Of a stretch of 64,000 bases of DNA, positions 2,120 to 40,243 are shown piece by piece (within the stretch, counting starts at the first letter, position 1; each line of letters starts with the position of its first letter). Both the position numbers and the translations under genes were made by a program. Below the pieces are notes generated by a model. The model searched no databases. It was not told the origin of the DNA and saw nothing but the letters and a program-made list of their open reading frames with translations. Source of the stretch: Escherichia phage EC121; sequence record NC_054909.1; one strand, 5' to 3'.

Positions 2120-3250
2120 TTATGGATAGGTATAGATGATACCAGTTTCTAAAGCAGTTTTATGAATGATGTATCCATTACGTGATTCTTGAACATCAAC
2201 TTCTGGATAGTCTTTCATCATCTTCTGAAGGGTGTAACGATGCAGGTAGTATTTACTATCTGGATCTTCAGTTTTCCAATCTTTACCTTCTTCGGTCATT
2301 TTTTGGATTTCATCCATAACCCACCAACCGCACCAGATATAAGCCGAAGTACGATGTGGAAGAGGATGAACATAAGGCAATTCACCTTCTGGTTCTGGAG
2401 CAACTTTATCAGTTACCTGAACTTGACCTTCTGCTGTGATAGTTTTGCTATCATAATCAGTAGCAGTAACAGTTGCAGTAACTTCAATAGTTTGACTTCC
2501 AATAGATGATGTATCAACGGTGTATACATTAGTTGACCCTTCTACTGGAGAAGAATCTTTCTTCCATGAATATTCGATTTGCGCTTCTTCTGGAGCATCA
2601 GTGACATTAGCAGTAAATGTAGCCGAAGCATCTTGCTGAACGTTAATAGAAGGAGGAGTCAATGTAACCTGTGGATTCATTGTTTTCTTATTAACAGTCA
2701 ATGATACTTCATTAGAAGTAACTGTTTTTGCGTCATAATCTGTTGCTGTTACTTGCGCTACGCATTTAATTCTTTTTACTCCACTTGTAGTTGGAGTATA
2801 GCTAAATGTAGCAGAAGTCGCTTCACCAATTTGAGAATCATCTACATACCATTGATATGTAGCAGACGCTCCATCGGGTTGAGAAGCTAAGGCAGCAGTA
2901 AATTGAACTGGGGTTCCAATTACTCCAGCAGCGGGACTATTGGGAGTTACTGCCAATGTAGTTGTCTGAGTTTTGTTTTTGACTGTGATAGTTGTAGTAG
3001 CTTCTGCTATTTCAGCTTCAGATTCTGGAACTGTATTTGTTGCAACAACTTTAATAGTCTTTTGACCAGCAGGACCTTTTAATACATAATCAAAAGTTGC
3101 CGCTGATCCTTCTTGCGGAGCATTATCTACACTCCAAGCATAGGTAATAGTTCCACCTCCAGTTTCACCACTGGGTGCAGCAGTAAACTGCTTAGTTTCA
3201 TCAATAACTCCAGTAGGTGTTTTAGGAGTTATATCAACTGTAAAAGCCAT
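2120..3250 (-). CDS. hoc: Highly immunogenic outer capsid protein Hoc
   Basis: 376 aa (T4 Hoc length); repeated Ig-like segments (…ATFxYxxT…) typical of Hoc; synteny. Confidence 0.9.
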   Translation of the reverse strand: MAFTVDITPKTPTGVIDETKQFTAAPSGETGGGTITYAWSVDNAPQEGSAATFDYVLKGPAGQKTIKVVATNTVPESEAEIAEATTTITVKNKTQTTTLAVTPNSPAAGVIGTPVQFTAALASQPDGASATYQWYVDDSQIGEATSATFSYTPTTSGVKRIKCVAQVTATDYDAKTVTSNEVSLTVNKKTMNPQVTLTPPSINVQQDASATFTANVTDAPEEAQIEYSWKKDSSPVEGSTNVYTVDTSSIGSQTIEVTATVTATDYDSKTITAEGQVQVTDKVAPEPEGELPYVHPLPHRTSAYIWCGWWVMDEIQKMTEEGKDWKTEDPDSKYYLHRYTLQKMMKDYPEVDVQESRNGYIIHKTALETGIIYTYP

Positions 3251-3259
3251 AAGTTATCC

Positions 3260-3940
3260 TTATTTTAATGTTACGAAAGAAGAATTGCGTGTTTCACGAA
3301 TTAGAACTGATCCGTCGCGATTAATGTAATAAATTAAGCTAAATAAAGTTTGGTGCGCCGACGCGTGTTCAAAACTAGTTGGGTGAGATTTCCAATCCGG
3401 AGTTTCAGCAATCCACTGGTAAATCCACCAAGGAACGGTACAGAATCCTGGATTTTTTCCAATCAGTTGAAGATTCGGACTAAAGTTTTCCGGAAGAGTA
3501 AATACAGACGGCTTTTCAGATTCAATAATCTTATCTACAGCTTGTTCAAACTTTTCTTCAACAAAAGGAGTATCTTCAATCAAAACATCGGTATTTTCAG
3601 GAATTTTATCCGTTTCTACTACTTCAATTTTAATGTCAGATTTAACCGGAGAATCAATCAGAAGTGCTGCCTCTGGATTGACTTCTTCATCGTCATATTT
3701 TAATCCGTCTGCAGCATCAGCAGCATCAATTAAGTCTTTAATAGATAACCCATCAGTCTCTGGCATAGGTTCACTAGCGAGCTTCTGGAGGGCTTCTTCA
3801 ATATCATTAACGATATTATCAAAAGATTTATTCTTTTTGACTTTTATACCAAACTGTTCAGCATATTCAGCTAATTTAGCTTTAGCTTCTTTATTATCAT
3901 CAAGAGCCTTCAGCTCTGCAATATAATCTTTATCTATCAT
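3260..3940 (-). CDS. inh: Inhibitor of prohead protease (Inh)
   Basis: 226-aa acidic protein adjacent to hoc, as in T4; name assigned by synteny and size only. Confidence 0.6.
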   Translation of the reverse strand: MIDKDYIAELKALDDNKEAKAKLAEYAEQFGIKVKKNKSFDNIVNDIEEALQKLASEPMPETDGLSIKDLIDAADAADGLKYDDEEVNPEAALLIDSPVKSDIKIEVVETDKIPENTDVLIEDTPFVEEKFEQAVDKIIESEKPSVFTLPENFSPNLQLIGKNPGFCTVPWWIYQWIAETPDWKSHPTSFEHASAHQTLFSLIYYINRDGSVLIRETRNSSFVTLK

Positions 3941-3953
3941 AATATTTCCTCAG

Positions 3954-3961
3954 TATAAATA
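3954..3961 (+). promoter_or_regulatory. T4-type late promoter (TATAAATA) upstream of segE/uvsW
   Basis: Exact TATAAATA 29 nt upstream of the segE start codon. Confidence 0.5.
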
Positions 3962-3989: not shown

Positions 3990-4607
3990 ATGTACCACTT
4001 TGTATATGAAACAACAAATCTAATAAATGGTAAAAAGTATATAGGAAAACACTCTACTGATGACTTGAATGATGGTTACCTTGGTTCCGGTAAGGCAATT
4101 CAGCAGGCTATAAAGAAATATGGTGAAAACAATTTCTCTAGAACAATACTAAAAGAGTTTAAAACTTCCGAAGAAGCGTACATGTATGAAGAAGAAATTA
4201 TAACTCCTGAACTAATAAAAAGCAAAAATTATTATAATATGAAACCTGGTGGAATTGGTGGAATTGTTATGACTGCAGAGGTTATAGCAAAGATGAAAGA
4301 ATCTTCCGCTAAGAGATTTGAAAACTCACCGGGCACGGTATTAGGTACAACTTGTTACACTAATGGAACTAAAAATATTTTTATTAAACCTGGAGAACTT
4401 GTTCCAGAAGGATTTGTAAAAGGGATGGTTCATCTTAATAGAAAGTCCAGAAAAGGATGTAAAGTCAAACCGACTACCACAGGAACTTTTTGGGTCAATA
4501 ATGGAGCAATAAATAAATTAATACAACCAGACGGTATTATTCCCGACGGATTTATTAAAGGTCGTCTCATGAAAAGAGACTCTAAAGGCAAATTTAGTAA
4601 GGCATAA
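3990..4607 (+). CDS. segE: GIY-YIG homing endonuclease, Seg family (segE position)
   Basis: 205 aa; N-terminal GIY-YIG module (VYETTNLINGKKYIGKH…GYLGSG); lies between inh and uvsW where T4 segE sits. Confidence 0.75.
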   Translation: MYHFVYETTNLINGKKYIGKHSTDDLNDGYLGSGKAIQQAIKKYGENNFSRTILKEFKTSEEAYMYEEEIITPELIKSKNYYNMKPGGIGGIVMTAEVIAKMKESSAKRFENSPGTVLGTTCYTNGTKNIFIKPGELVPEGFVKGMVHLNRKSRKGCKVKPTTTGTFWVNNGAINKLIQPDGIIPDGFIKGRLMKRDSKGKFSKA

Positions 4608-4609
4608 TT

Positions 4610-6118
4610 ATGGATATTAAAGTACATTTTCACGACTTCAGTCATGTACGCATCGATTGTGAAGAGAGCACGTTCCACGAATTAAGAGATTTCTTTTCGT
4701 TTGAGGCCGATGGATATAGGTTTAATCCTCGCTTCAGATATGGCAACTGGGATGGACGAATCCGTCTTTTAGATTATAATCGCCTTCTTCCATTCGGTTT
4801 AGTCGGGCAAATTAAAAAGTTCTGTGATAACTTTGGCTATAAAGCCTGGATTGACCCGCAAATTAACGAAAAAGAAGAATTATCAAGAAAAGATTTTGAT
4901 GAATGGCTTTCTAAATTAGAAATCTATTCAGGAAATAAAAGAATTGAACCGCATTGGTATCAAAAAGATGCAGTGTTCGAAGGATTAGTTAATCGTCGTA
5001 GAATTCTTAATCTTCCAACATCCGCAGGTAAATCTTTAATTCAAGCTTTGCTTGCTCGGTATTATTTGGAAAATTATGAAGGTAAAATTCTTATCATTGT
5101 TCCAACAACTGCTCTGACAACTCAGATGGCTGATGACTTTGTTGACTATCGTTTATTCAGTCATGCAATGATAAAGAAAATCGGCGGTGGAGCATCAAAA
5201 GATGATAAATATAAAAATGATGCACCAGTCGTTGTTGGTACATGGCAAACTGTAGTAAAACAACCGAAAGAATGGTTCTCACAGTTTGGAATGATGATGA
5301 ATGATGAATGTCATCTTGCTACAGGAAAAAGTATTTCATCTATCATATCAGGTTTAAATAACTGTATGTTTAAATTTGGTTTGTCTGGTTCATTACGTGA
5401 TGGCAAAGCTAATATCATGCAGTATGTTGGAATGTTTGGCGAAATATTTAAGCCAGTAACGACTTCTAAATTAATGGAAGATGGACAAGTAACTGAGTTA
5501 AAAATTAATAGTATTTTTCTTCGCTATCCCGATGAGTTCACTACTAAATTAAAGGGAAAAACTTACCAAGAAGAAATAAAAATTATTACTGGACTCAGTA
5601 AAAGAAATAAATGGATCGCTAAATTAGCTATTAAGCTTGCACAAAAAGATGAAAACGCTTTTGTCATGTTTAAACACGTATCGCACGGTAAAGCTATTTT
5701 CGATTTAATTAAAAATGAATACGATAAAGTTTATTACGTATCAGGGGAAGTTGATACCGAAACACGCAACGTAATGAAAACCTTAGCTGAAAACGGTAAA
5801 GGAATAATTATAGTAGCTAGTTATGGTGTATTTTCTACTGGTATTTCAGTTAAAAATCTGCATCACGTTGTTTTAGCGCACGGTGTTAAATCAAAAATCA
5901 TTGTATTACAAACAATCGGTCGTGTATTACGTAAGCACGGTTCTAAGACAATAGCAACGGTCTGGGACCTCATAGATGACGCGGGCGTAGTTTCTAAATC
6001 AAAAACATCTTCTAAAAAATACTCGCATTTAAACTATCTTTTAAAACATGGACTTGATCGTATTCAGCGTTATGCTGATGAGAAGTTTAATTATGTGATG
6101 AAAGAGGTTAAACTTTGA
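4610..6118 (+). CDS. uvsW: UvsW DNA/RNA helicase (SF2)
   Basis: 502 aa (T4 UvsW length); N-terminus MDIKVHFHDFSHVRIDCEES… and Walker A TSAGKS, DExH-like NDECH motifs. Confidence 0.9.
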   Translation: MDIKVHFHDFSHVRIDCEESTFHELRDFFSFEADGYRFNPRFRYGNWDGRIRLLDYNRLLPFGLVGQIKKFCDNFGYKAWIDPQINEKEELSRKDFDEWLSKLEIYSGNKRIEPHWYQKDAVFEGLVNRRRILNLPTSAGKSLIQALLARYYLENYEGKILIIVPTTALTTQMADDFVDYRLFSHAMIKKIGGGASKDDKYKNDAPVVVGTWQTVVKQPKEWFSQFGMMMNDECHLATGKSISSIISGLNNCMFKFGLSGSLRDGKANIMQYVGMFGEIFKPVTTSKLMEDGQVTELKINSIFLRYPDEFTTKLKGKTYQEEIKIITGLSKRNKWIAKLAIKLAQKDENAFVMFKHVSHGKAIFDLIKNEYDKVYYVSGEVDTETRNVMKTLAENGKGIIIVASYGVFSTGISVKNLHHVVLAHGVKSKIIVLQTIGRVLRKHGSKTIATVWDLIDDAGVVSKSKTSSKKYSHLNYLLKHGLDRIQRYADEKFNYVMKEVKL

Positions 6119-6807
6119 ATTATAAATTAATATACGATAATTTAATTAATAGAGCCCAGAATCGGGCTCGCCTTAATGGATACACTGAAACTCATCATAT
6201 AATTCCTAGATGTATGGGCGGTACAGATGATAAGTGTAATTTGGTAGAACTAACAGCTGAAGAGCATTTTATAGCTCATAAACTTTTAGCTAAAATTCAT
6301 CCAAACCATTACGGTATAATTAAAGCCGTTATATGTATGGGGATGAATTCAAAGACTCATGAAAGACACGTTAATAAATCTTACGCCTGGGAACGTCGTA
6401 AAATGGCAGAACTTCAATCAGGTGAAGGTAATCCATTTTACGGAAAACACCATACGGAAGAACATAAACAATATATGTCAAAACTCATGAAAAATCGTCC
6501 AATTACATGGGGAAGTAAAATTAGTAAAACTAAAAGAATGAACCCAACAAAATGGACTGAAGAAGCTAAAAGATTGCATTCTATCAATCAATCAGGTAAA
6601 AATAATGGCATGTATGGAAGGAAACATTCCGCTAAATCTATTCAGAAAATTAAAGATAATATGCCAGATAATTCAGGAGCTAATAACCCAGCTGCTAAAC
6701 CTATAGAAGTAAATGGTGTTAAGTATAAATGTATGAAAGATGCTTCTAAAGCTACTGGATTATCAATGTACAAACTAAGAATACTTAGAAAAACAGTTAA
6801 TTTATAA
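6115..6807 (+). CDS. HNH homing endonuclease, Mob-like, with NUMOD-type DNA-binding repeats
   Basis: 230-aa ORF starting at TTG that overlaps the uvsW stop (TTGA); N-terminal ~65 aa are paralogous to the mobE product in this window (…ETHHIIPRCMGG…NLVELTAEEHFIAHKLL…); C-terminus has GK(H/R)HxxE repeats. Confidence 0.75.
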   Translation: MNYKLIYDNLINRAQNRARLNGYTETHHIIPRCMGGTDDKCNLVELTAEEHFIAHKLLAKIHPNHYGIIKAVICMGMNSKTHERHVNKSYAWERRKMAELQSGEGNPFYGKHHTEEHKQYMSKLMKNRPITWGSKISKTKRMNPTKWTEEAKRLHSINQSGKNNGMYGRKHSAKSIQKIKDNMPDNSGANNPAAKPIEVNGVKYKCMKDASKATGLSMYKLRILRKTVNL

Positions 6808-6832
6808 GGGCTTCGGCCCTTTGGAGAAAAAG

Positions 6833-7063
6833 ATGTTACTAGAATTTAAACAATTTCTTTATGAAGCTTCTATTGATGAATTTATGGGTAAAATTGCCTC
6901 TTGTCAAACATTAGAAGGTTTAGAAGAACTTGAAGCTTATTATAAGAAAAGAGTCAAAGAAACTGAATTAAAAGATACTGATGACATCTCCGTGAGAGAT
7001 GCTTTGGCAGGAAAAAGAGCTGAATTAGAAGATTCAGACGATGAAGTAGAAGAAAGCTTTTAA
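6833..7063 (+). CDS. uvsW.1: UvsW.1 small acidic protein
   Basis: 76 aa from the ATG at 6833, which is preceded by GGAG; the ORF track extends it to an upstream TTG. Matches T4 UvsW.1 in size and position. Confidence 0.6.
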   Translation: MLLEFKQFLYEASIDEFMGKIASCQTLEGLEELEAYYKKRVKETELKDTDDISVRDALAGKRAELEDSDDEVEESF

Positions 7064-32609: not shown

Positions 32610-33788
32610 TTAAAAGTATTTTTTAAAACTCATCATAACTTTATCATCAACATCATTATCAATCTGTGCAACAAGATAAGATGACAGTTCTACTTCTTGC
32701 GGCGCGGATTGAACATTATCAGAATTAAGGTATTCACGAATCCAAGGATATGGATGTTTAACCGGAGCATCGGTAATCGGGCATGGAAGACCACACTGTT
32801 TCATACGAGATACAGTTAAGTAATCAATAAAGCTCCACATGCTATTTGTATTTAATCCAGGAACATCGCCATCTTTAAATAAATGAACTGCCCAATCTTT
32901 TTCTTGACGGTTAACTTCCATGAAAATATCAACTGCTTCTTGTTCACACTCTTTGGCAATTTTAACCCATTCATCGCCATCAGTACCAGATTGAAGTTGA
33001 CGAATAATATATTGTGTACCTTTAAGATGAAGCTGCTCATCACGTGCAATAAATTTCATAATCTTCGCATTACCTTCCATGATTTCCATGTTCTTATGGA
33101 AGTTGAAAGTACATGCAAAGGATACATAAAAACGAATAGCTTCCAGAGCATTGATAACGTGCAGACAGAGATAAAGCGACTTCATCAGGTCTCGTTTACA
33201 TTCTTCCAAATGAGTGAGACTGTTTGAATATGCTTCTAAATCATATTCATTTTCAGCAAAATAACTAAAGTTTTCTTTGGCGTTTTCCCAAATACGTGTC
33301 TTGTCCAGAACATCATCATAATAACGACCCATAGATTCAGCACGTTTCATGATAGCTTTATCTAATACAATCTCATCAAATACCCTTGACGGATCAGTAT
33401 AAAGATTTCGCATAATATGAGTGTATGAACGACTGTGAATAGTTTCACTAAAAGTCCATGTAGCAACCCATGTATCAAGGCTTGGGTCTGAAATCAATGA
33501 CATAAGTACAGCAGACGGTGCACGACCCTGAATGCTATCCAGAAGTGATTGATACTTCAGATTATTAGTAAAAATATTCTGCTGATATTGAGGAAGCTTA
33601 TTAAACTGTGCAGCATCCATCATTAAGTTTACTTCTTCAGGACGCCAGAAAAATGATAATTGCTTTTCGGTCAAATCTTCAAAAACTTTATGGCGTTGAA
33701 TATCATAACGCGCAATACCAAGACCTGAACCAAAAAACATAGGTTCTTTTAAAACATCAACTGGATTTGTATTAAAAACTGTAGACAT
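32610..33788 (-). CDS. nrdB: Ribonucleotide reductase small subunit NrdB, intronless
   Basis: 392 aa from the Met at 33788 (AGAGGA Shine-Dalgarno; TAATG overlap with the mobE stop); continuous ORF with no intervening sequence. Confidence 0.9.
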   Translation of the reverse strand: MSTVFNTNPVDVLKEPMFFGSGLGIARYDIQRHKVFEDLTEKQLSFFWRPEEVNLMMDAAQFNKLPQYQQNIFTNNLKYQSLLDSIQGRAPSAVLMSLISDPSLDTWVATWTFSETIHSRSYTHIMRNLYTDPSRVFDEIVLDKAIMKRAESMGRYYDDVLDKTRIWENAKENFSYFAENEYDLEAYSNSLTHLEECKRDLMKSLYLCLHVINALEAIRFYVSFACTFNFHKNMEIMEGNAKIMKFIARDEQLHLKGTQYIIRQLQSGTDGDEWVKIAKECEQEAVDIFMEVNRQEKDWAVHLFKDGDVPGLNTNSMWSFIDYLTVSRMKQCGLPCPITDAPVKHPYPWIREYLNSDNVQSAPQEVELSSYLVAQIDNDVDDKVMMSFKKYF

Positions 33789-34519
33789 TAATTTTTCCTC
33801 TTTAAAATTCTGCCGCGTTTCCAACCTGGCGGTATAATATCATCTTTACCTATAAGCGTGCATTCACTTCCATTATTAATCCATTTCTTACCGCGGATTC
33901 CTTTATAATCTCTTGGTTGTATTTTGTCAAACTTTGCATCAGGTTGATATGCCCATCTAAATCCATAGGCATATTGAAATTTACCCTCAGCACAATATTT
34001 GATATTTGACCCGTTTCCATTAACTGACCTGGACGCTGCCGCAATAGAGTGAAAGGTTTCTATGAAATCCCCATCTAATGAGAATTTATGTATTTCGATA
34101 GATGGGCATGCATACCTATTCACGTTTGATACATGTCGTTTAGTTTCGTTTTTATGATGCTTGCCTAACATTCCTCTAGGATGAGGATTATTTTTCCAGT
34201 ATTTCTTAAAGAAATCAGAATTAGCTTTAGCAAATAATTTTCTGTGCAAGCTATACAATCTGTTATTAATTCTATTACCAGCTTTATCTGTTGCCATTAA
34301 CGTTAACGCAGAGGCAAGCCCAAAATGGCCTTCATTTATCTTACATAGTAATAGATGCGCTATAAAATGTTCTCTAGCTGTTAATTCAACTAAATTTTCT
34401 TTATCATCAGAACCTCCCATGCATTTAGGGACTATATGATGTGTCTCTTTATATTCGGATAAAGGTTCCCGAGCCTGAGCTCGGGAAATTAGGTCGTTAT
34501 AGATTTTTTGATAATTCAT
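33788..34519 (-). CDS. mobE: HNH homing endonuclease MobE (free-standing)
   Basis: 243 aa; HNH core (ETHHIVPKCMGG…NLVELTAREHFIAH); lies between nrdA and nrdB as T4 mobE does; TAATG-coupled on both sides. Confidence 0.8.
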   Translation of the reverse strand: MNYQKIYNDLISRAQAREPLSEYKETHHIVPKCMGGSDDKENLVELTAREHFIAHLLLCKINEGHFGLASALTLMATDKAGNRINNRLYSLHRKLFAKANSDFFKKYWKNNPHPRGMLGKHHKNETKRHVSNVNRYACPSIEIHKFSLDGDFIETFHSIAAASRSVNGNGSNIKYCAEGKFQYAYGFRWAYQPDAKFDKIQPRDYKGIRGKKWINNGSECTLIGKDDIIPPGWKRGRILKRKN

Positions 34520-36783
34520 TACAATTTACACGCTGCACAATCGTCGGCTTTTGGAGTTTCTATTTCATAATCATCAGTACCGGAACCATCACGGGTATTA
34601 TGATAATAGAAATTTTTAATGCCATAATACCATCCGTATAGCATATCATCAATCATTATTGACATTGGAACCTTTCCTTTTGGAAAAATCTGCGGGTCAT
34701 AATATGTATTCGCTGAAGCTGATTGACATACCCATTTAAGCATAATAGCTACCTGCGTAAGATAAGGTTTATTACCTTTCTTAGCTAATTTCCATGTATA
34801 ATCATAGAGGTCTATGTTATGTTCAATATTGGGCACGACTTGATTAAAGGAACCCTCTTTTGATTCTTTAACAGAGACTGGTCCACGTGGAGGCTCGATA
34901 CCGTTTGTACTGTTAGAAACTTGGGAAGATGACTCACATGGCATAAGTGCTGATAATGTGCTATTACGGATGCCAAAGAGCTTAAGGTCTTCCCGCAGCT
35001 CCGACCAGTCACAAACGTATTTTGGAGCTGCGATTTGGTCAATCTTTTTATTGTACCAGTCGATAGGTAATTCGCCTCGAGACCAACGAGTGTCTGAATA
35101 ATATTCGCAAGGTCCTTTTTCTTTGGCGAGCTTAATGGATGCTTTAATGAGCCCATACTGTAATCTCTCAAATAGTTCATGTGTTAAATCGTTAGCATCT
35201 TCATAAGAAGCAAAGTTACTTGCCAGCCAAGCTGCATAGTTAGTAACACCTACGCCAAGGTTTCGACGCTTTTTAGCTTTTTCTGCTTCAGGAACTGGAT
35301 ATCCTTGGTAATCCAAAAGATTATCAAGAGCGCGAACTTGAACTTCTGCTAATTCATTAATTTTATCTTGGTCTTGCCAATCAAAGTTATCCAACACAAA
35401 TGCAGATAACGTGCACAATCCAATTTCAGCATCAGGACTATTCACATCATTTGTTGGAATAGCAATTTCACAACACAGGTTACTCTGACGAATCGGTGCC
35501 TTTTCACGAATAAATGGAGTATAGTTATTCGTATTATCAATGAACTGTACATAAATCCTTGCTGTTCCTGAGCGTTCAGTCATGAGCAATTCAAACAGTT
35601 CACGGGCTTTAATACGCTTTTTACGAATATTAGGGTCTTTTTCTGCAGCTTCGTATAATTCACGGAAACGGTCTTGGTCTTTAAAATAAGAATAATAAAG
35701 CTCGCCACCCATTTCATGCGGACTGAACAAAGTAATGTAGTCGTTCTTTCCGAATCGTTCCATCATCAAATCATTCAGCTGGACACCATAATCCATATGG
35801 CGGATACGGTTTTCTTCTACGCCTTTGTTATTTTTCAAAACGAGAAGATTTTCAACTTCCAAATGCCAAATAGGATAATAAGCAGTAGCAGCGCCGCCAC
35901 GAATTCCACCCTGTGAGCATGATTTAACAGCAGTCTGAAAATGTTTCCAAAAAGGAATAACACCAGTATGGCGTACTTCACCTGTGCCAATCTTAGAACC
36001 TTCGGCACGAATCATACCAACGTTAATACCAATTCCAGCGCGTTTGGAGATATATTCAACAATTGAAGCGGAAGCCTTATTGATAGACTTCAGCGAATCA
36101 CCTGCTTCAATAACAACGCATGAACTAAACTGCCGGGTTGGAGTACGACATCCAGCCATAATAGGAGTTGGCAATGAAATCTGTCGAGTAGATACCGCTT
36201 CATAAAAACGGATAACGTGTTTTAATCTATCAACAGGTTCATCTTGATGCAATGCCATTCCAATAGTCATAAATGCAAACTGTGGAGTTTCATAAATTTG
36301 ACCAGTGGTTTTATCTTTAACTAGATATTTTTCTTTTAATTGCATCGCCCCGGAATAAGTAAATTCCATATCCCGTTCATGCTTAATTTTTGATTCTAAA
36401 AATGTAATTTCTTCTGCTGAATATTTTGACAACAATTCAGGGTCATATTTACCTTCATTTACGCAGTAAGAAATATGGTCAATAAATGAACGTGGTTCAT
36501 ACTGTCCATAAACATGCTTACGAAGAGCGAACATTAAACAGCGTGCAGCTACGTATTGATAATCAGGCTCTTCAACTGAAATAGAATTCGCAGCAGCCTT
36601 AATTACAATGGTTTGAATGTCATCAGTTGTCATTCCATCACGGAGATATGATTTAATATTTTCATATAATTCATAAGGATCTACTGATGTTCCTTCAGCT
36701 GCCCAAGATAAAACTTTAATAATTTTTTGTGGGTCAAAGCTCTGAGAAACACCACTACTTTTGATAACATTAATTAATTGCAT
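34519..36783 (-). CDS. nrdA: Ribonucleotide reductase large subunit NrdA
   Basis: 754 aa (T4 NrdA length); ATP-cone N-terminus and class Ia catalytic motifs. Confidence 0.95.
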   Translation of the reverse strand: MQLINVIKSSGVSQSFDPQKIIKVLSWAAEGTSVDPYELYENIKSYLRDGMTTDDIQTIVIKAAANSISVEEPDYQYVAARCLMFALRKHVYGQYEPRSFIDHISYCVNEGKYDPELLSKYSAEEITFLESKIKHERDMEFTYSGAMQLKEKYLVKDKTTGQIYETPQFAFMTIGMALHQDEPVDRLKHVIRFYEAVSTRQISLPTPIMAGCRTPTRQFSSCVVIEAGDSLKSINKASASIVEYISKRAGIGINVGMIRAEGSKIGTGEVRHTGVIPFWKHFQTAVKSCSQGGIRGGAATAYYPIWHLEVENLLVLKNNKGVEENRIRHMDYGVQLNDLMMERFGKNDYITLFSPHEMGGELYYSYFKDQDRFRELYEAAEKDPNIRKKRIKARELFELLMTERSGTARIYVQFIDNTNNYTPFIREKAPIRQSNLCCEIAIPTNDVNSPDAEIGLCTLSAFVLDNFDWQDQDKINELAEVQVRALDNLLDYQGYPVPEAEKAKKRRNLGVGVTNYAAWLASNFASYEDANDLTHELFERLQYGLIKASIKLAKEKGPCEYYSDTRWSRGELPIDWYNKKIDQIAAPKYVCDWSELREDLKLFGIRNSTLSALMPCESSSQVSNSTNGIEPPRGPVSVKESKEGSFNQVVPNIEHNIDLYDYTWKLAKKGNKPYLTQVAIMLKWVCQSASANTYYDPQIFPKGKVPMSIMIDDMLYGWYYGIKNFYYHNTRDGSGTDDYEIETPKADDCAACKL

Positions 36784-37337: not shown

Positions 37338-37649
37338 TTACACCGCCATCTTTCCTTTAATAGGAGGATGTGATTCATAGTTGTTAAGAACAAAATTATG
37401 AGGCTTTGCAAATTGACTCAACCAAAATACCTGCGATTCTGTGTCCCATTCATCAAATTCATCTGGAAATTTTAATTGTAATTCGCATAAATCCATAGGT
37501 TCACGACATAAAATTTCTTTACATTGTTCTACGTGATTCATATAGATATGAGTATTACCACCAGAAAATATCAAATCTCCAGGAATAAGATTACACATCT
37601 TAGCTACAATATGAACTAACGTAGCATATGATGCAATATTAAATGGTAG
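37338..37649 (-). CDS. td: Thymidylate synthase, exon 2
   Basis: Encodes [19 protein letters not shown]…PPIKGKMAV; begins immediately after the intron 3' end (…CATAATG|CTACCATTT). Confidence 0.9.
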
Positions 37650-38665
37650 CATTATGTTCAGATAAGGTCGTTAATCTTACCCCGGAATTATATCCAGCTG
37701 CATGTCACCATGCAGATCAGACTATATCTCCAACTTGTTAAAGCAAGTTGTCTATCGTTTCGAGTCACTTGACCCTACTCCCCAAAGGGATAGTCGTTAG
37801 GCATTTATGTAGAACCAATTCCATTTATCAGATTTTACACGATAAGTAACTAATCCAGACGAAATTTTAAAATGTCTAGCTGCATCTGCTGCACAATCAA
37901 AAATAACCCCATCACATGAAATCTTTTTAATATTACTAGGCTTTTTACCTTTCATCTTTTCTGATATTTTAGATTTAGTTATGTCTGAATGCTTATGATT
38001 AAAGAATGAATTATTTTCACCTGAACGATTTCTGCATTTACTACAAGTATAAGCAGAAGTTTGTATGCGAACACCGCACTTACAAAACTTATGGGTTTCT
38101 GGATTCCAACGCCCGTTTTTACTTCCGGGTTTACTGTAAAGAGCTTTCCGACCATCAGGTCCAAGTTTAAGCATCTTAGCTTTAACAGTTTCAGAACGTT
38201 TCTTAATAATTTCTTCTTTTAATGGATGCGTAGAACATGTATCACCAAACGTTGCATCAGCAATATTGTATCCATTAATTTTAGAATTAAGCTCTTTAAT
38301 CCAAAAATTTTCTCGTTCAATAATCAAATCTTTCTCATATGGAATTTCTTCCAAAATAGAACATTCAAACACATTACCATGTTTGTTAAAAGACCTCTGA
38401 AGTTTTATAGAAGAATGGCATCCTTTTTCTAAATCTTTAAAATGCCTCTTCCATCTCTTTTCAAAATCTTTAGCACTTCCTACATATACTTTATTGTTTA
38501 AAGTATTTTTAATCTGATAAATTCCGCTTTTCATAAATACCTCTTTAAATATAGAAGTATTTATTAAAGGGCAGTCCTACAATTTAGCACGGGATTGTCT
38601 ACTAGAGAGGTTCCCCGTTTAGATAGATTACAAGTATAAGTCACCTTATACTCAGGCCTCAATTA
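37650..38665 (-). mobile_element. Group I self-splicing intron in td (1016 nt) carrying the I-TevI ORF
   Basis: 5' end UAAUUGAGGCCUGAGUAUAAGGUGACUUAUACUUGUAAUCUAUCUAAACGGGGAACCUCUCUAG… and 3' end …GGGGUAAGAUUAACGACCUUAUCUGAACAUAAUG match the T4 td intron as I recall it; same length. Confidence 0.88.
37797..38534 (-). CDS. I-TevI: Intron-encoded GIY-YIG homing endonuclease I-TevI
   Basis: 245 aa; MKSGIYQIKNTLNNKVYVGSAKDFEKRWKRH… with GIY-YIG N-domain, zinc finger (CKCGVRIQTSAYTCSKC) and C-terminal HTH; inside the td intron. Confidence 0.92.
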   Translation of the reverse strand: MKSGIYQIKNTLNNKVYVGSAKDFEKRWKRHFKDLEKGCHSSIKLQRSFNKHGNVFECSILEEIPYEKDLIIERENFWIKELNSKINGYNIADATFGDTCSTHPLKEEIIKKRSETVKAKMLKLGPDGRKALYSKPGSKNGRWNPETHKFCKCGVRIQTSAYTCSKCRNRSGENNSFFNHKHSDITKSKISEKMKGKKPSNIKKISCDGVIFDCAADAARHFKISSGLVTYRVKSDKWNWFYINA

Positions 38666-39213
38666 ACCCAAGAAAACATCTACTGATCGCTGATACCACT
38701 GCAGATCCAAATAGCCATTACGCACATTAAATTGATAGAACATATGACAAGGTGGTAATGCCATTTGCTTGAGTTCTGCCGGATTCCATGCTGAAACAAT
38801 TTGACGTCTATCATTTGGCAGTTTTTTAATACGTTCAACAACTTCTATAATTTGATCTACGCCACCAAAATCGCGCCACTGTTTTCCATAAATTGGACCA
38901 AGTTCACCGCTATGGTATCCTAAATCTTTTGCTTGATTTTCGTAATTTTCATCCCAAACTGTTTTGCCTTGGATTAACGAATCATGTTGAATTAATCGCA
39001 AATCATTGACATTTGTGCTTCCCGATAAAAACCATATTAGCTCAGCAATACAGGCTTTCCATGCTAATTTTTTAGTTGTTACCACAGGAAAACCTTTAGT
39101 TAAATCCCAGCGTAATTTAGTACCGAACAAAGCAATTGTTCCTGTGCCTGTTCGGTCATCGGTTTCATAGCCATTTTCCAGAATATCTTTAATTAAAAAT
39201 TGGTATTGTTTCA

Positions 39214-39214
<1 letters not shown>
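38666..39214 (-). CDS. td: Thymidylate synthase, exon 1
   Basis: Starts at MKQYQFLIKDILENGYETDDRTGTGT… (ATG 39212-39214) and ends …RSVDVFLG at the 5' splice site; the ORF track extends it to an upstream TTG. Confidence 0.9.

Positions 39215-40243
<1,029 letters not shown>

Follow-up and report, generated by a model that had tools for sequence, protein, structure and literature searches.

In phage T4, the helicase gene uvsW and its neighbour uvsW.1 are 25 nt apart with nothing between them. In Escherichia phage EC121 (NC_054909.1), a further gene of 693 bp stands at this junction. What does this gene encode, how is it accommodated between two conserved neighbours, and how is it translated from what looks like a TTG start codon? 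We addressed these questions in a 64,000-nt stretch of the EC121 sequence (hereafter the window; positions count from its first nucleotide, and + denotes the strand given) and in related phages. An initial annotation, made from the letters alone, had proposed an HNH endonuclease gene separating uvsW from uvsW.1, and an open reading frame (ORF) of matching extent is indeed present. Taking the evidence together, we read it, with a probability of about 0.8, as a Mob-type free-standing HNH homing endonuclease gene (HEG) whose home is the 3′ end of uvsW. The features of the junction are as follows.

4610..6118, + strand: uvsW helicase gene, 502 aa, equal in length to T4 UvsW; its 3′ end is the invaded part of the host gene
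6115..6807, + strand: the HEG, read as a free-standing HNH homing endonuclease gene; 230 aa, TTG start
6833..7063, + strand: uvsW.1, 76 aa, matching PF11637 (Pfam UvsW-1) at 1.7e-30 and essentially T4-identical
6104..6792, + strand: extra segment relative to T4, 689 bp, made up of a substitute uvsW tail (EVKL-stop) and the HEG body
6104..6107, + strand: GAGG Shine-Dalgarno (SD) sequence of the HEG, 7 nt before the TTG, inside the Glu-Val codons of the substitute uvsW tail
6115..6118, + strand: start/stop overlap TTGA (HEG TTG 6115-6117, uvsW TGA 6116-6118)
6790..6807, + strand: relic native uvsW tail AAAACAGTTAATTTATAA (KTVNL-stop), T4-identical, now the last five codons and stop of the HEG
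6808..6832, + strand: native spacer, T4-identical; contains a GGGC-UUCG-GCCC hairpin as well as the SD of uvsW.1, GGAG

The insert lies within the last codons of uvsW

Alignment with T4 and relatives, the check proposed in the initial annotation, fixed the insert at 6104..6792, with a 3-nt ambiguity that stems from a repeated AAA. Where T4 reads ...GTA ATG AAA / ACA GTT AAT TTA TAA GGGCTTCGGCCC, the window reads ...GTG ATG AAA / GAG GTT AAA CTT TGA ATT ... CTT AGA AAA / ACA GTT AAT TTA TAA GGGCTTCGGCCC (slashes mark the insert boundaries). The site is therefore not intergenic, as had been supposed at first: the segment falls within the last five uvsW codons, five codons before the native stop, and the native tail is reused as the 3′ end of the HEG. 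The displaced codons are replaced by a substitute tail, GAG GTT AAA CTT TGA, and UvsW stays at 502 aa with the C-terminus KEVKL in place of the KTVNL of T4. The new Glu-Val codons provide a GAGG that the T4 uvsW tail does not have, and the new Leu-stop provides TTGA. At the other end, the HEG ORF continues through the native uvsW tail without a change of codon phase and finishes at the native TAA. Together with 6098-6118, this relic forms a degenerate 21-nt direct repeat. Beyond it, uvsW.1 shows no HEG-linked divergence from T4, and we place its start at the ATG that follows GGAG, whereas the ORF finder had listed the TTG at 6821.

The same arrangement recurs in other lineages. Phage SP18 has a perfect 18-nt direct repeat (AATTAAACAGGTGGAAAT) at both insert ends and PM2 a 15-nt repeat; in PSD2002 the HEG ends in MKQVDL-stop, which is the uvsW tail of the HEG-less phage JS10. 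The empty sites of T4, JS10 and Mineola all match the HEG right junction. In JS10 and Mineola, uvsW and uvsW.1 natively overlap as ATGA, and in genera with this native overlap the HEG carries ATGA-type overlaps on both sides; in effect, the HEG there borrows the coupling signal otherwise used by uvsW.1.

The statement that the T4 genes are adjacent and were once read as one ORF held as well. The corrected T4 uvsW ends ...ATGAAAACAGTTAATTTATAA. In the T4 RefSeq record NC_000866.4 (locus positions 2178-3941), a 1-nt error at the stop of uvsW (TTTA-ATAAG for TTTATAAGG) still fuses the two into an old uvsW of 587 codons; in the resequenced record MT984581, uvsW has 503 codons.

An HNH head shared with MobE and different DNA-binding modules

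A chance ORF can be ruled out: the HEG protein falls in PHROG 655, 'homing endonuclease' (1.6e-61, residues 1-217), it matches the Pfam NUMOD3 motif, and its ratio of non-synonymous to synonymous substitution rates (dN/dS) in comparison with phage T6 is 0.06, indicating purifying selection. PHROG 655 also takes in the MobE of the window and the HEG of phage Bp7. The HNH motif occupies residues ∼23-55 (nt ∼6181-6279). Against the Pfam HNH profile PF01844 the HEG protein scores 16.8 bits, below the gathering cut-off of 21.4, and the window's MobE likewise stays below it with 19.3 bits; we therefore take these scores to mark a divergent Mob subfamily rather than exclusion from the HNH superfamily. 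In an alignment of 69 homologues, Y3, H28, P31, G36, N42, L46, E50, H51, H55 and L58 are invariant, and H27/H28, N42, H51 and H55, which make up the HNH signature, are invariant or nearly so. The predicted structure places a strand-strand-helix at residues 25-61 (pLDDT ∼95), and Foldseek matches of the model include the HNH domains of Cas8-HNH, McrA and Gme.

Downstream of the nuclease head lie two NUMOD3 motifs (7.7e-14, best stretch residues 94-122) and, at residues ∼157-218, an I-TevI-like DNA-binding helix-turn-helix (HTH). The Pfam match to the I-TevI DNA-binding domain is weak; the C-terminal ∼60-75 residues match that domain (PDB 1I3J/1T2T) in both sequence and predicted fold. I-TevI itself (245 aa) is encoded in the window at 37797-38534 (− strand), in the td intron between the thymidylate synthase exons 37338-37652 and 38663-39226 (− strand), and its DNA-binding domain is an in-window relative of the HEG C-terminus, with 32% identity over 69 aa.

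The window holds a second Mob-type gene, which the initial annotation had named as a paralogue of the HEG N-terminus.

33788..34519, − strand: MobE-like paralogue with HNH and NUMOD1; its ATG overlaps the nrdA stop by 1 nt

The two proteins are 47% identical over 134 aa (BLASTP, E 6e-35). Paralogy is clear for the nuclease head, in which 42 of the first 60 residues are identical (70%), and is confined to it: the similarity ends at about residue 124, and the C-terminal modules differ. A common head joined to different DNA-binding modules makes the HEG a paralogue of MobE, and neither MobE nor MobD. It lacks full-length homology to MobE and occupies the uvsW 3′ end instead of nrdA/nrdB. What it shares with Mob-type enzymes is the full-length PHROG 655 profile match, the common head and the NUMOD-type modules. 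By these sequence and model comparisons, the HEG appears to be a functional, genuine Mob-type free-standing HNH homing endonuclease gene.

A fixed site and a sporadic distribution

In a search of the GenBank phage collection for Tequatrovirus relatives, the HEG was found at this position, at ≥ 95% identity, in 47 of 747 matching records, counts that are inflated by GenBank/RefSeq duplicates. Carriers include T6, HY03, PST, ACG-C40 and UFV-AREG1, and both T6 and HY03 annotate the gene with identical TTG-start coordinates. It is missing from T2, most other matching records and T4, whose junction is empty. Orthologues with 55-70% amino acid identity occupy the same junction in Jiaodavirus (Roth16, PSE-D1), Dhakavirus (PSD2002), Gaprivervirus (SP18), Bragavirus (PM2), Morganella phage Rgz1 and three metagenome contigs. 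The HEG is not a recent arrival in this one phage. The group is tight in protein searches (E ≤ 1e-68 over the full length; next match 3e-36), all ORFs examined are intact, and wherever the context was examined the orthologue is flanked by UvsW and UvsW.1 and its start overlaps the uvsW stop over 4 nt. A scan of IMG/VR with the HEG protein returned only ZN18 and G8 as close orthologues, the rest being distant paralogues. Sporadic presence among close relatives at one fixed site is the pattern of a homing gene, and together with the PHROG 655 match it favours the proposed assignment to the free-standing homing endonucleases, as far as comparative data reach.

The junction has attracted at least one other nuclease gene. 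Bp7 (locus positions 2042-2824) and UGJNEcP3/4 carry a different Mob-type HNH gene of 260 aa here, which scores above threshold with PF01844, has a C-terminus unrelated to that of the HEG, starts in TTGA and ends in ATGA; the uvsW/uvsW.1 junction is thus a recurrent landing site. In PM2 (locus positions 668-1543), a 291-aa ORF splits uvsW into two helicase coding sequences (CDSs). It belongs to PHROG 15427 ('endonuclease'), has a weak match to a TnsA-like endonuclease N-terminal domain, and appears to be another mobile nuclease, inside the helicase gene.

The HEG has already been annotated in T6 and many other phages; it is an uncharacterized free-standing homing endonuclease. Labels of the Tequatrovirus orthologues vary between mobD (in PST), mobile endonuclease E, group I intron endonuclease, NUMOD3 motif protein, portal protein and hypothetical, and W143 calls the gene MobE. 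In SP18 (locus positions 2045-2742) the full ORF runs from TTG 2045, overlapping the uvsW stop, and the RefSeq start is an internal ATG at 2141, which loses the first 32 codons including the catalytic His. These inconsistencies, the truncated SP18 CDS among them, deserve flagging. Our literature search found no paper on this gene. The UFV-AREG1 genome paper lists both flanking helicase CDSs with no comment, and reviews of 2010 merely count the mob-like genes of T6.

A diverged uvsW tract accompanies the gene

Homing is expected to drag along a piece of the target gene. With the insert taken out, 0-4 of every 100 positions differ between the window and T4 across uvsW, and ∼0-1 of every 100 in uvsW.1. 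The figure spikes on the left flank alone: at ∼5975-6103, 38 of ∼130 positions differ, and in the last ∼75 nt of the tract the differences are mostly synonymous third-position changes. The tract falls into two parts.

5975..6118, + strand: diverged uvsW 3′ tract, ∼27% different from T4; predicted location of target/immunity polymorphisms
∼5981-6025, + strand: sub-tract A, also present in the HEG-less phage OES_C-2 and loosely linked
6031-6118, + strand: sub-tract B, so far seen only in HEG-bearing records

The 79 nt at 6036-6114 recur with ≥ 97.5% identity in 47 records; the next best match is 85.5%, with none in between. This number equals that of HEG records (47), the two being compared as totals and not record by record. 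On these matching totals and the left-flank spike, the flanking marker tract appears to be co-inherited with the HEG, as for a homing gene, and it looks like a co-conversion or immunity tract. A fixed site, a sporadic spread and a dragged, diverged piece of the target gene together fit the prediction of intronless homing. On the same comparative grounds, we infer that the enzyme would act on the last ∼130 bp of uvsW in HEG-less genomes. OES_C-2 is a mosaic, window-like to ∼6025 and T4-like from 6031 on, and its breakpoint near 6026-6030 may serve as a lead for the cut site, nothing more. The closest other genus is only ∼72% identical in the diverged tract, so the donor lineage is unsampled.

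On its 5′ side, uvsW is flanked by a second, independent mobile gene.

3990..4607, + strand: segE, GIY-YIG homing endonuclease gene

ZN18 and G8 have the HEG and its tract but lack segE and carry the other uvsW 5′ allele; HEG and tract hence assort independently of the segE background. Over the uvsW 5′ region (window 4610-5300), segE-bearing phages (window, T6, HY03 and T4) are ∼98% identical, as against ∼93-94% for phages lacking segE (ZN18, G8 and OES_C-2). This allele difference looks like SegE's own co-conversion tract, and with both tracts uvsW is bracketed by two independent selfish nucleases.

The strongest competitor to homing is that the HEG is an old resident, which entered the junction in an enterobacterial T4-like ancestor, descended vertically with many losses, and was perhaps kept to exclude co-infecting relatives. 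Between genera, HEG amino acid identity (55-70%) roughly parallels that of uvsW (65-77%) and uvsW.1 (57-80%), which fits a long association with each lineage; the closest HEGs (Roth16 and L098) adjoin the closest uvsW genes, and no near-identical HEG is common to two genera. Within Tequatrovirus the picture is different: the gene is confined to the 47 of 747 records and has a foreign-looking flank of 145 nt with sharp boundaries. It occurs on backgrounds with and without segE and with different uvsW 5′ alleles, its catalytic residues and ORF are intact everywhere, and hundreds of precise losses, each restoring the exact T4 tail, are less parsimonious than gain. We consider pure vertical descent improbable.

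Start codon, upstream signals and predicted expression

The TTG start overlapping the uvsW TGA, as initially annotated, stood up to scrutiny. The HEG frame is closed by a TAA at 6109-6111, two codons ahead of the TTG, so no earlier start is possible. This TAA and the lack of a slippery heptamer also ruled out a programmed frameshift from uvsW into the HEG frame. Initiation further downstream, at the next in-frame ATG (codon 34, past the invariant His27/His28), would leave a DNA-binding protein of ∼197 aa whose HNH site is incomplete, and the TTG would then be irrelevant. The SP18 RefSeq CDS does begin there, and TTG is rare as a start in T4-type phages; free-standing HEGs of T4 start with AUG, except mobA with GUG (Edgell review, PMC2988022). 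Yet codons 1-33 are kept as protein in all lineages and in MobE (Y3, H27 and H28 being invariant or nearly so), in 10 of 10 lineages the reading frame begins exactly at NTGA, three lineages having ATG at that point, a stop lies just two codons before the TTG, the GAGG has ideal spacing to the TTG, and codon 34 has no SD before it. An internal start is very unlikely, and the HEG is best read as opening at the overlap.

It is this NTGA overlap with the uvsW stop that is invariant in the 10 lineages examined; the start codon itself is not. TTG is used in four lineages (Tequatrovirus, PSD2002, SP18 and L096, and also by the unrelated HEG of Bp7), GTG in two (PM2 and L098) and ATG in three (Roth16, Rgz1 and L097). 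Coding does not impose TTG, since the last uvsW codon is always Leu or Ile and ATGA would suit either equally well. Every TTG start has GAGG or AGGTGG 6-7 nt upstream, and TTG and GTG starts mostly come with an SD, in contrast to the three ATG-start lineages, which have no good SD before the HEG. The association of start codon and SD reaches p ∼0.06 (Fisher exact) in a sample that is small and phylogenetically non-independent. The downstream uvsW.1 has ATG plus SD in all lineages, which suggests that HEG initiation is held below that of its neighbour. Of the attenuated TTG initiation initially suspected, weak and coupling-dependent initiation is plausible; TTG as the key, conserved feature is not.

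The start region is also predicted to fold.

6076..6122, + strand: predicted RNA hairpin with an 11-bp A/U-rich stem, 6082-6092 pairing with 6106-6116

Within this stem lie the GG of the SD and the UU of the start codon. It folds at −9.2 kcal/mol (z −4.1), an energy that none of 200 shuffles reached; T4, at its empty site, lacks this hairpin (0 kcal/mol). RNAalifold predicted no pairs at the start site across 11 lineages, and when the window hairpin was counted across lineages, it came out 83.5% paired compared with 80.6% in shuffles, a weak conservation. On these figures the hairpin belongs to the Tequatrovirus allele (partly also to PM2), not to the whole HEG family. Hairpins that sequester the ribosome-binding site (RBS) are common for phage HEGs, and the overlap of the mobE AUG with the nrdA stop probably provides a coupling that limits expression (PMC2988022). 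In the window, this MobE/nrdA overlap lies at 34517-34521 (− strand) and equals the UAAUGA layout given for T4 in the same review. With the TTGA of the HEG, both Mob-type genes of the window are thus start/stop-coupled to a conserved upstream gene. A separate GC-rich perfect 6-bp hairpin, GAGCCC-AGAATC-GGGCTC, lies at 6153-6170 within HEG codons 13-19. It was marked as a terminator-like element of the minus strand, albeit one with a poor T-run, and is identical in the T6 and HY03 copies.

As for transcription, the exact late-promoter box TATAAATA occurs nearby on the + strand only at 3954-3961, upstream of segE. A late promoter inside the HEG was rejected, the candidate TATAAATT at 6122-6129 being merely a 7/8 match. 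According to the literature, a conserved bidirectional terminator follows uvsW.1. From these two signals, segE, uvsW, HEG and uvsW.1 probably form one late transcript.

Searches for a fused UvsW-UvsW.1 protein

A last possibility is that an HEG ancestor split a once-continuous helicase gene into uvsW and uvsW.1, HEG-less phages being secondary losses; reportedly, there are 'genes in pieces' models for this in Aeh1 mobE in nrdA and mobA in gene 39/60. In every lineage the split is exactly where the HEG family is found, HEG-less genera overlap the two ORFs as ATGA, and HEG tails duplicate the uvsW tail (perfectly over 18 nt in SP18, over 15 nt in PM2), but no fused UvsW-UvsW.1 protein was found: all 75 near UvsW.1 homologue clusters are of ∼75 aa, and none of the 36 matches in an exhaustive profile search of 1.84 billion representatives is a helicase with a C-terminal UvsW.1 domain, which leaves this idea with hardly any credit.

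The same profile search brought up a family of ∼260-300-aa proteins (P0214-P0229) in which an N-terminal UvsW.1 domain (PF11637, up to 1e-23) precedes ∼220 further residues; one of these proteins has a weak cytidylyltransferase-like match. This architecture is undescribed; the domain is otherwise known only as a 75-aa stand-alone phage protein.

A proposed route of homing

The 689-bp insert, the native tail that finishes the HEG and the TTGA behind GAGG are seen directly in the alignments, and for the homing of this Mob-type gene we take MobE, I-HmuI and I-TevI as models. By analogy with these, the I-TevI-like tail would, in a mixed infection, bind the 3′ end of uvsW or the junction in a HEG-less relative, and the HNH head would nick or cut near the bound site. 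Phage recombination would then repair the break with the HEG-carrying genome as template, so that the HEG and the neighbouring ∼80-140 nt of uvsW are copied together. Two things would shield the carrier allele: its site is interrupted, and its linked tract has many changes, most of them synonymous. The HEG would be carried on the transcript that begins at the late-promoter box upstream of segE. The HEG is probably a late gene with low expression that depends on ribosomes finishing uvsW, whose translation probably delivers them to the HEG start; low and coupled expression is expected because of the weak start codon, the start/stop overlap and the hairpin over part of the SD and start.

Each of the models shares some of these traits. 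T4 MobE has the same nuclease head (70% over 60 aa), belongs to PHROG 655, stands free behind a conserved gene of DNA metabolism, and has a start that overlaps the upstream stop (UAAUGA for mobE, UUGA for the HEG). It differs in its site, nrdA/nrdB as opposed to the uvsW 3′ end; the window's MobE has NUMOD1, where the HEG has two NUMOD3 motifs and an I-TevI-type HTH. Unlike MobE, the HEG has a TTG start and an insert within the last codons of the host gene, with a replacement tail. I-TevI, likewise, carries its DNA-binding domain in the C-terminus, and the I-TevI-like tail of the HEG thus implies extended minor-groove and HTH recognition, with the nuclease tethered at a distance; however, I-TevI is intron-encoded and uses GIY-YIG catalysis, whereas the HEG is free-standing and HNH. 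The nicking enzyme I-HmuI of Bacillus phage SPO1 (HNH with NUMOD3-type linkers and HTH, PDB 1U3E) resembles the HEG in its HNH head and extended DNA-binding tail. Mob enzymes, too, are reported to nick, not to cut (PMC2988022).

T4 SegE, located between inh and uvsW with its target in uvsW, flanks the same host gene and has its own linked uvsW 5′ allele, but its nuclease family is unrelated, it lies at the other end of uvsW, and its distribution is independent of that of the HEG. The T4 mobA/gene 60 cassette and Aeh1 mobE in nrdA are said to be HEG insertions that travel with sequence keeping the host gene functional (both are cited in PMC10236363 and PMC2988022). The HEG likewise brings host-gene-restoring sequence, namely a substitute UvsW C-terminus, stop and RBS; unlike in those cases, the host protein is unsplit, only its last four residues are changed (TVNL to EVKL), and there is no bypass element.

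A more far-reaching version, which we put forward tentatively and as doubtful, is that the HEG travels as a self-contained cassette: a resistant uvsW 3′ allele, a substitute C-terminus that doubles as SD and start, and a nuclease completed by the recipient's own tail, with a trade-off between start codon and SD that keeps expression low and coupled to uvsW. If this were true, the trade-off (TTG with GAGG, ATG without SD) would amount to a tunable 'parasite thermostat'.

Implications for T-even phages

The kind of element described here is well known; its detailed anatomy may be worth a short study. The list of Mob-type HNH homing endonucleases is short, and only MobE among them has been studied; the HEG extends it by a family that spans several genera and is clearly tied to one site. 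Its predicted target is precise: in HEG-less genomes, the final ∼130 bp of uvsW. The replacement tail, which doubles as the gene's own translation signal, illustrates how an HEG can settle within a coding sequence and leave it undamaged. Finally, uvsW encodes a recombination helicase, and two selfish nucleases, each dragging its own side of this gene, would account for the mosaic uvsW alleles of T-even genomes.

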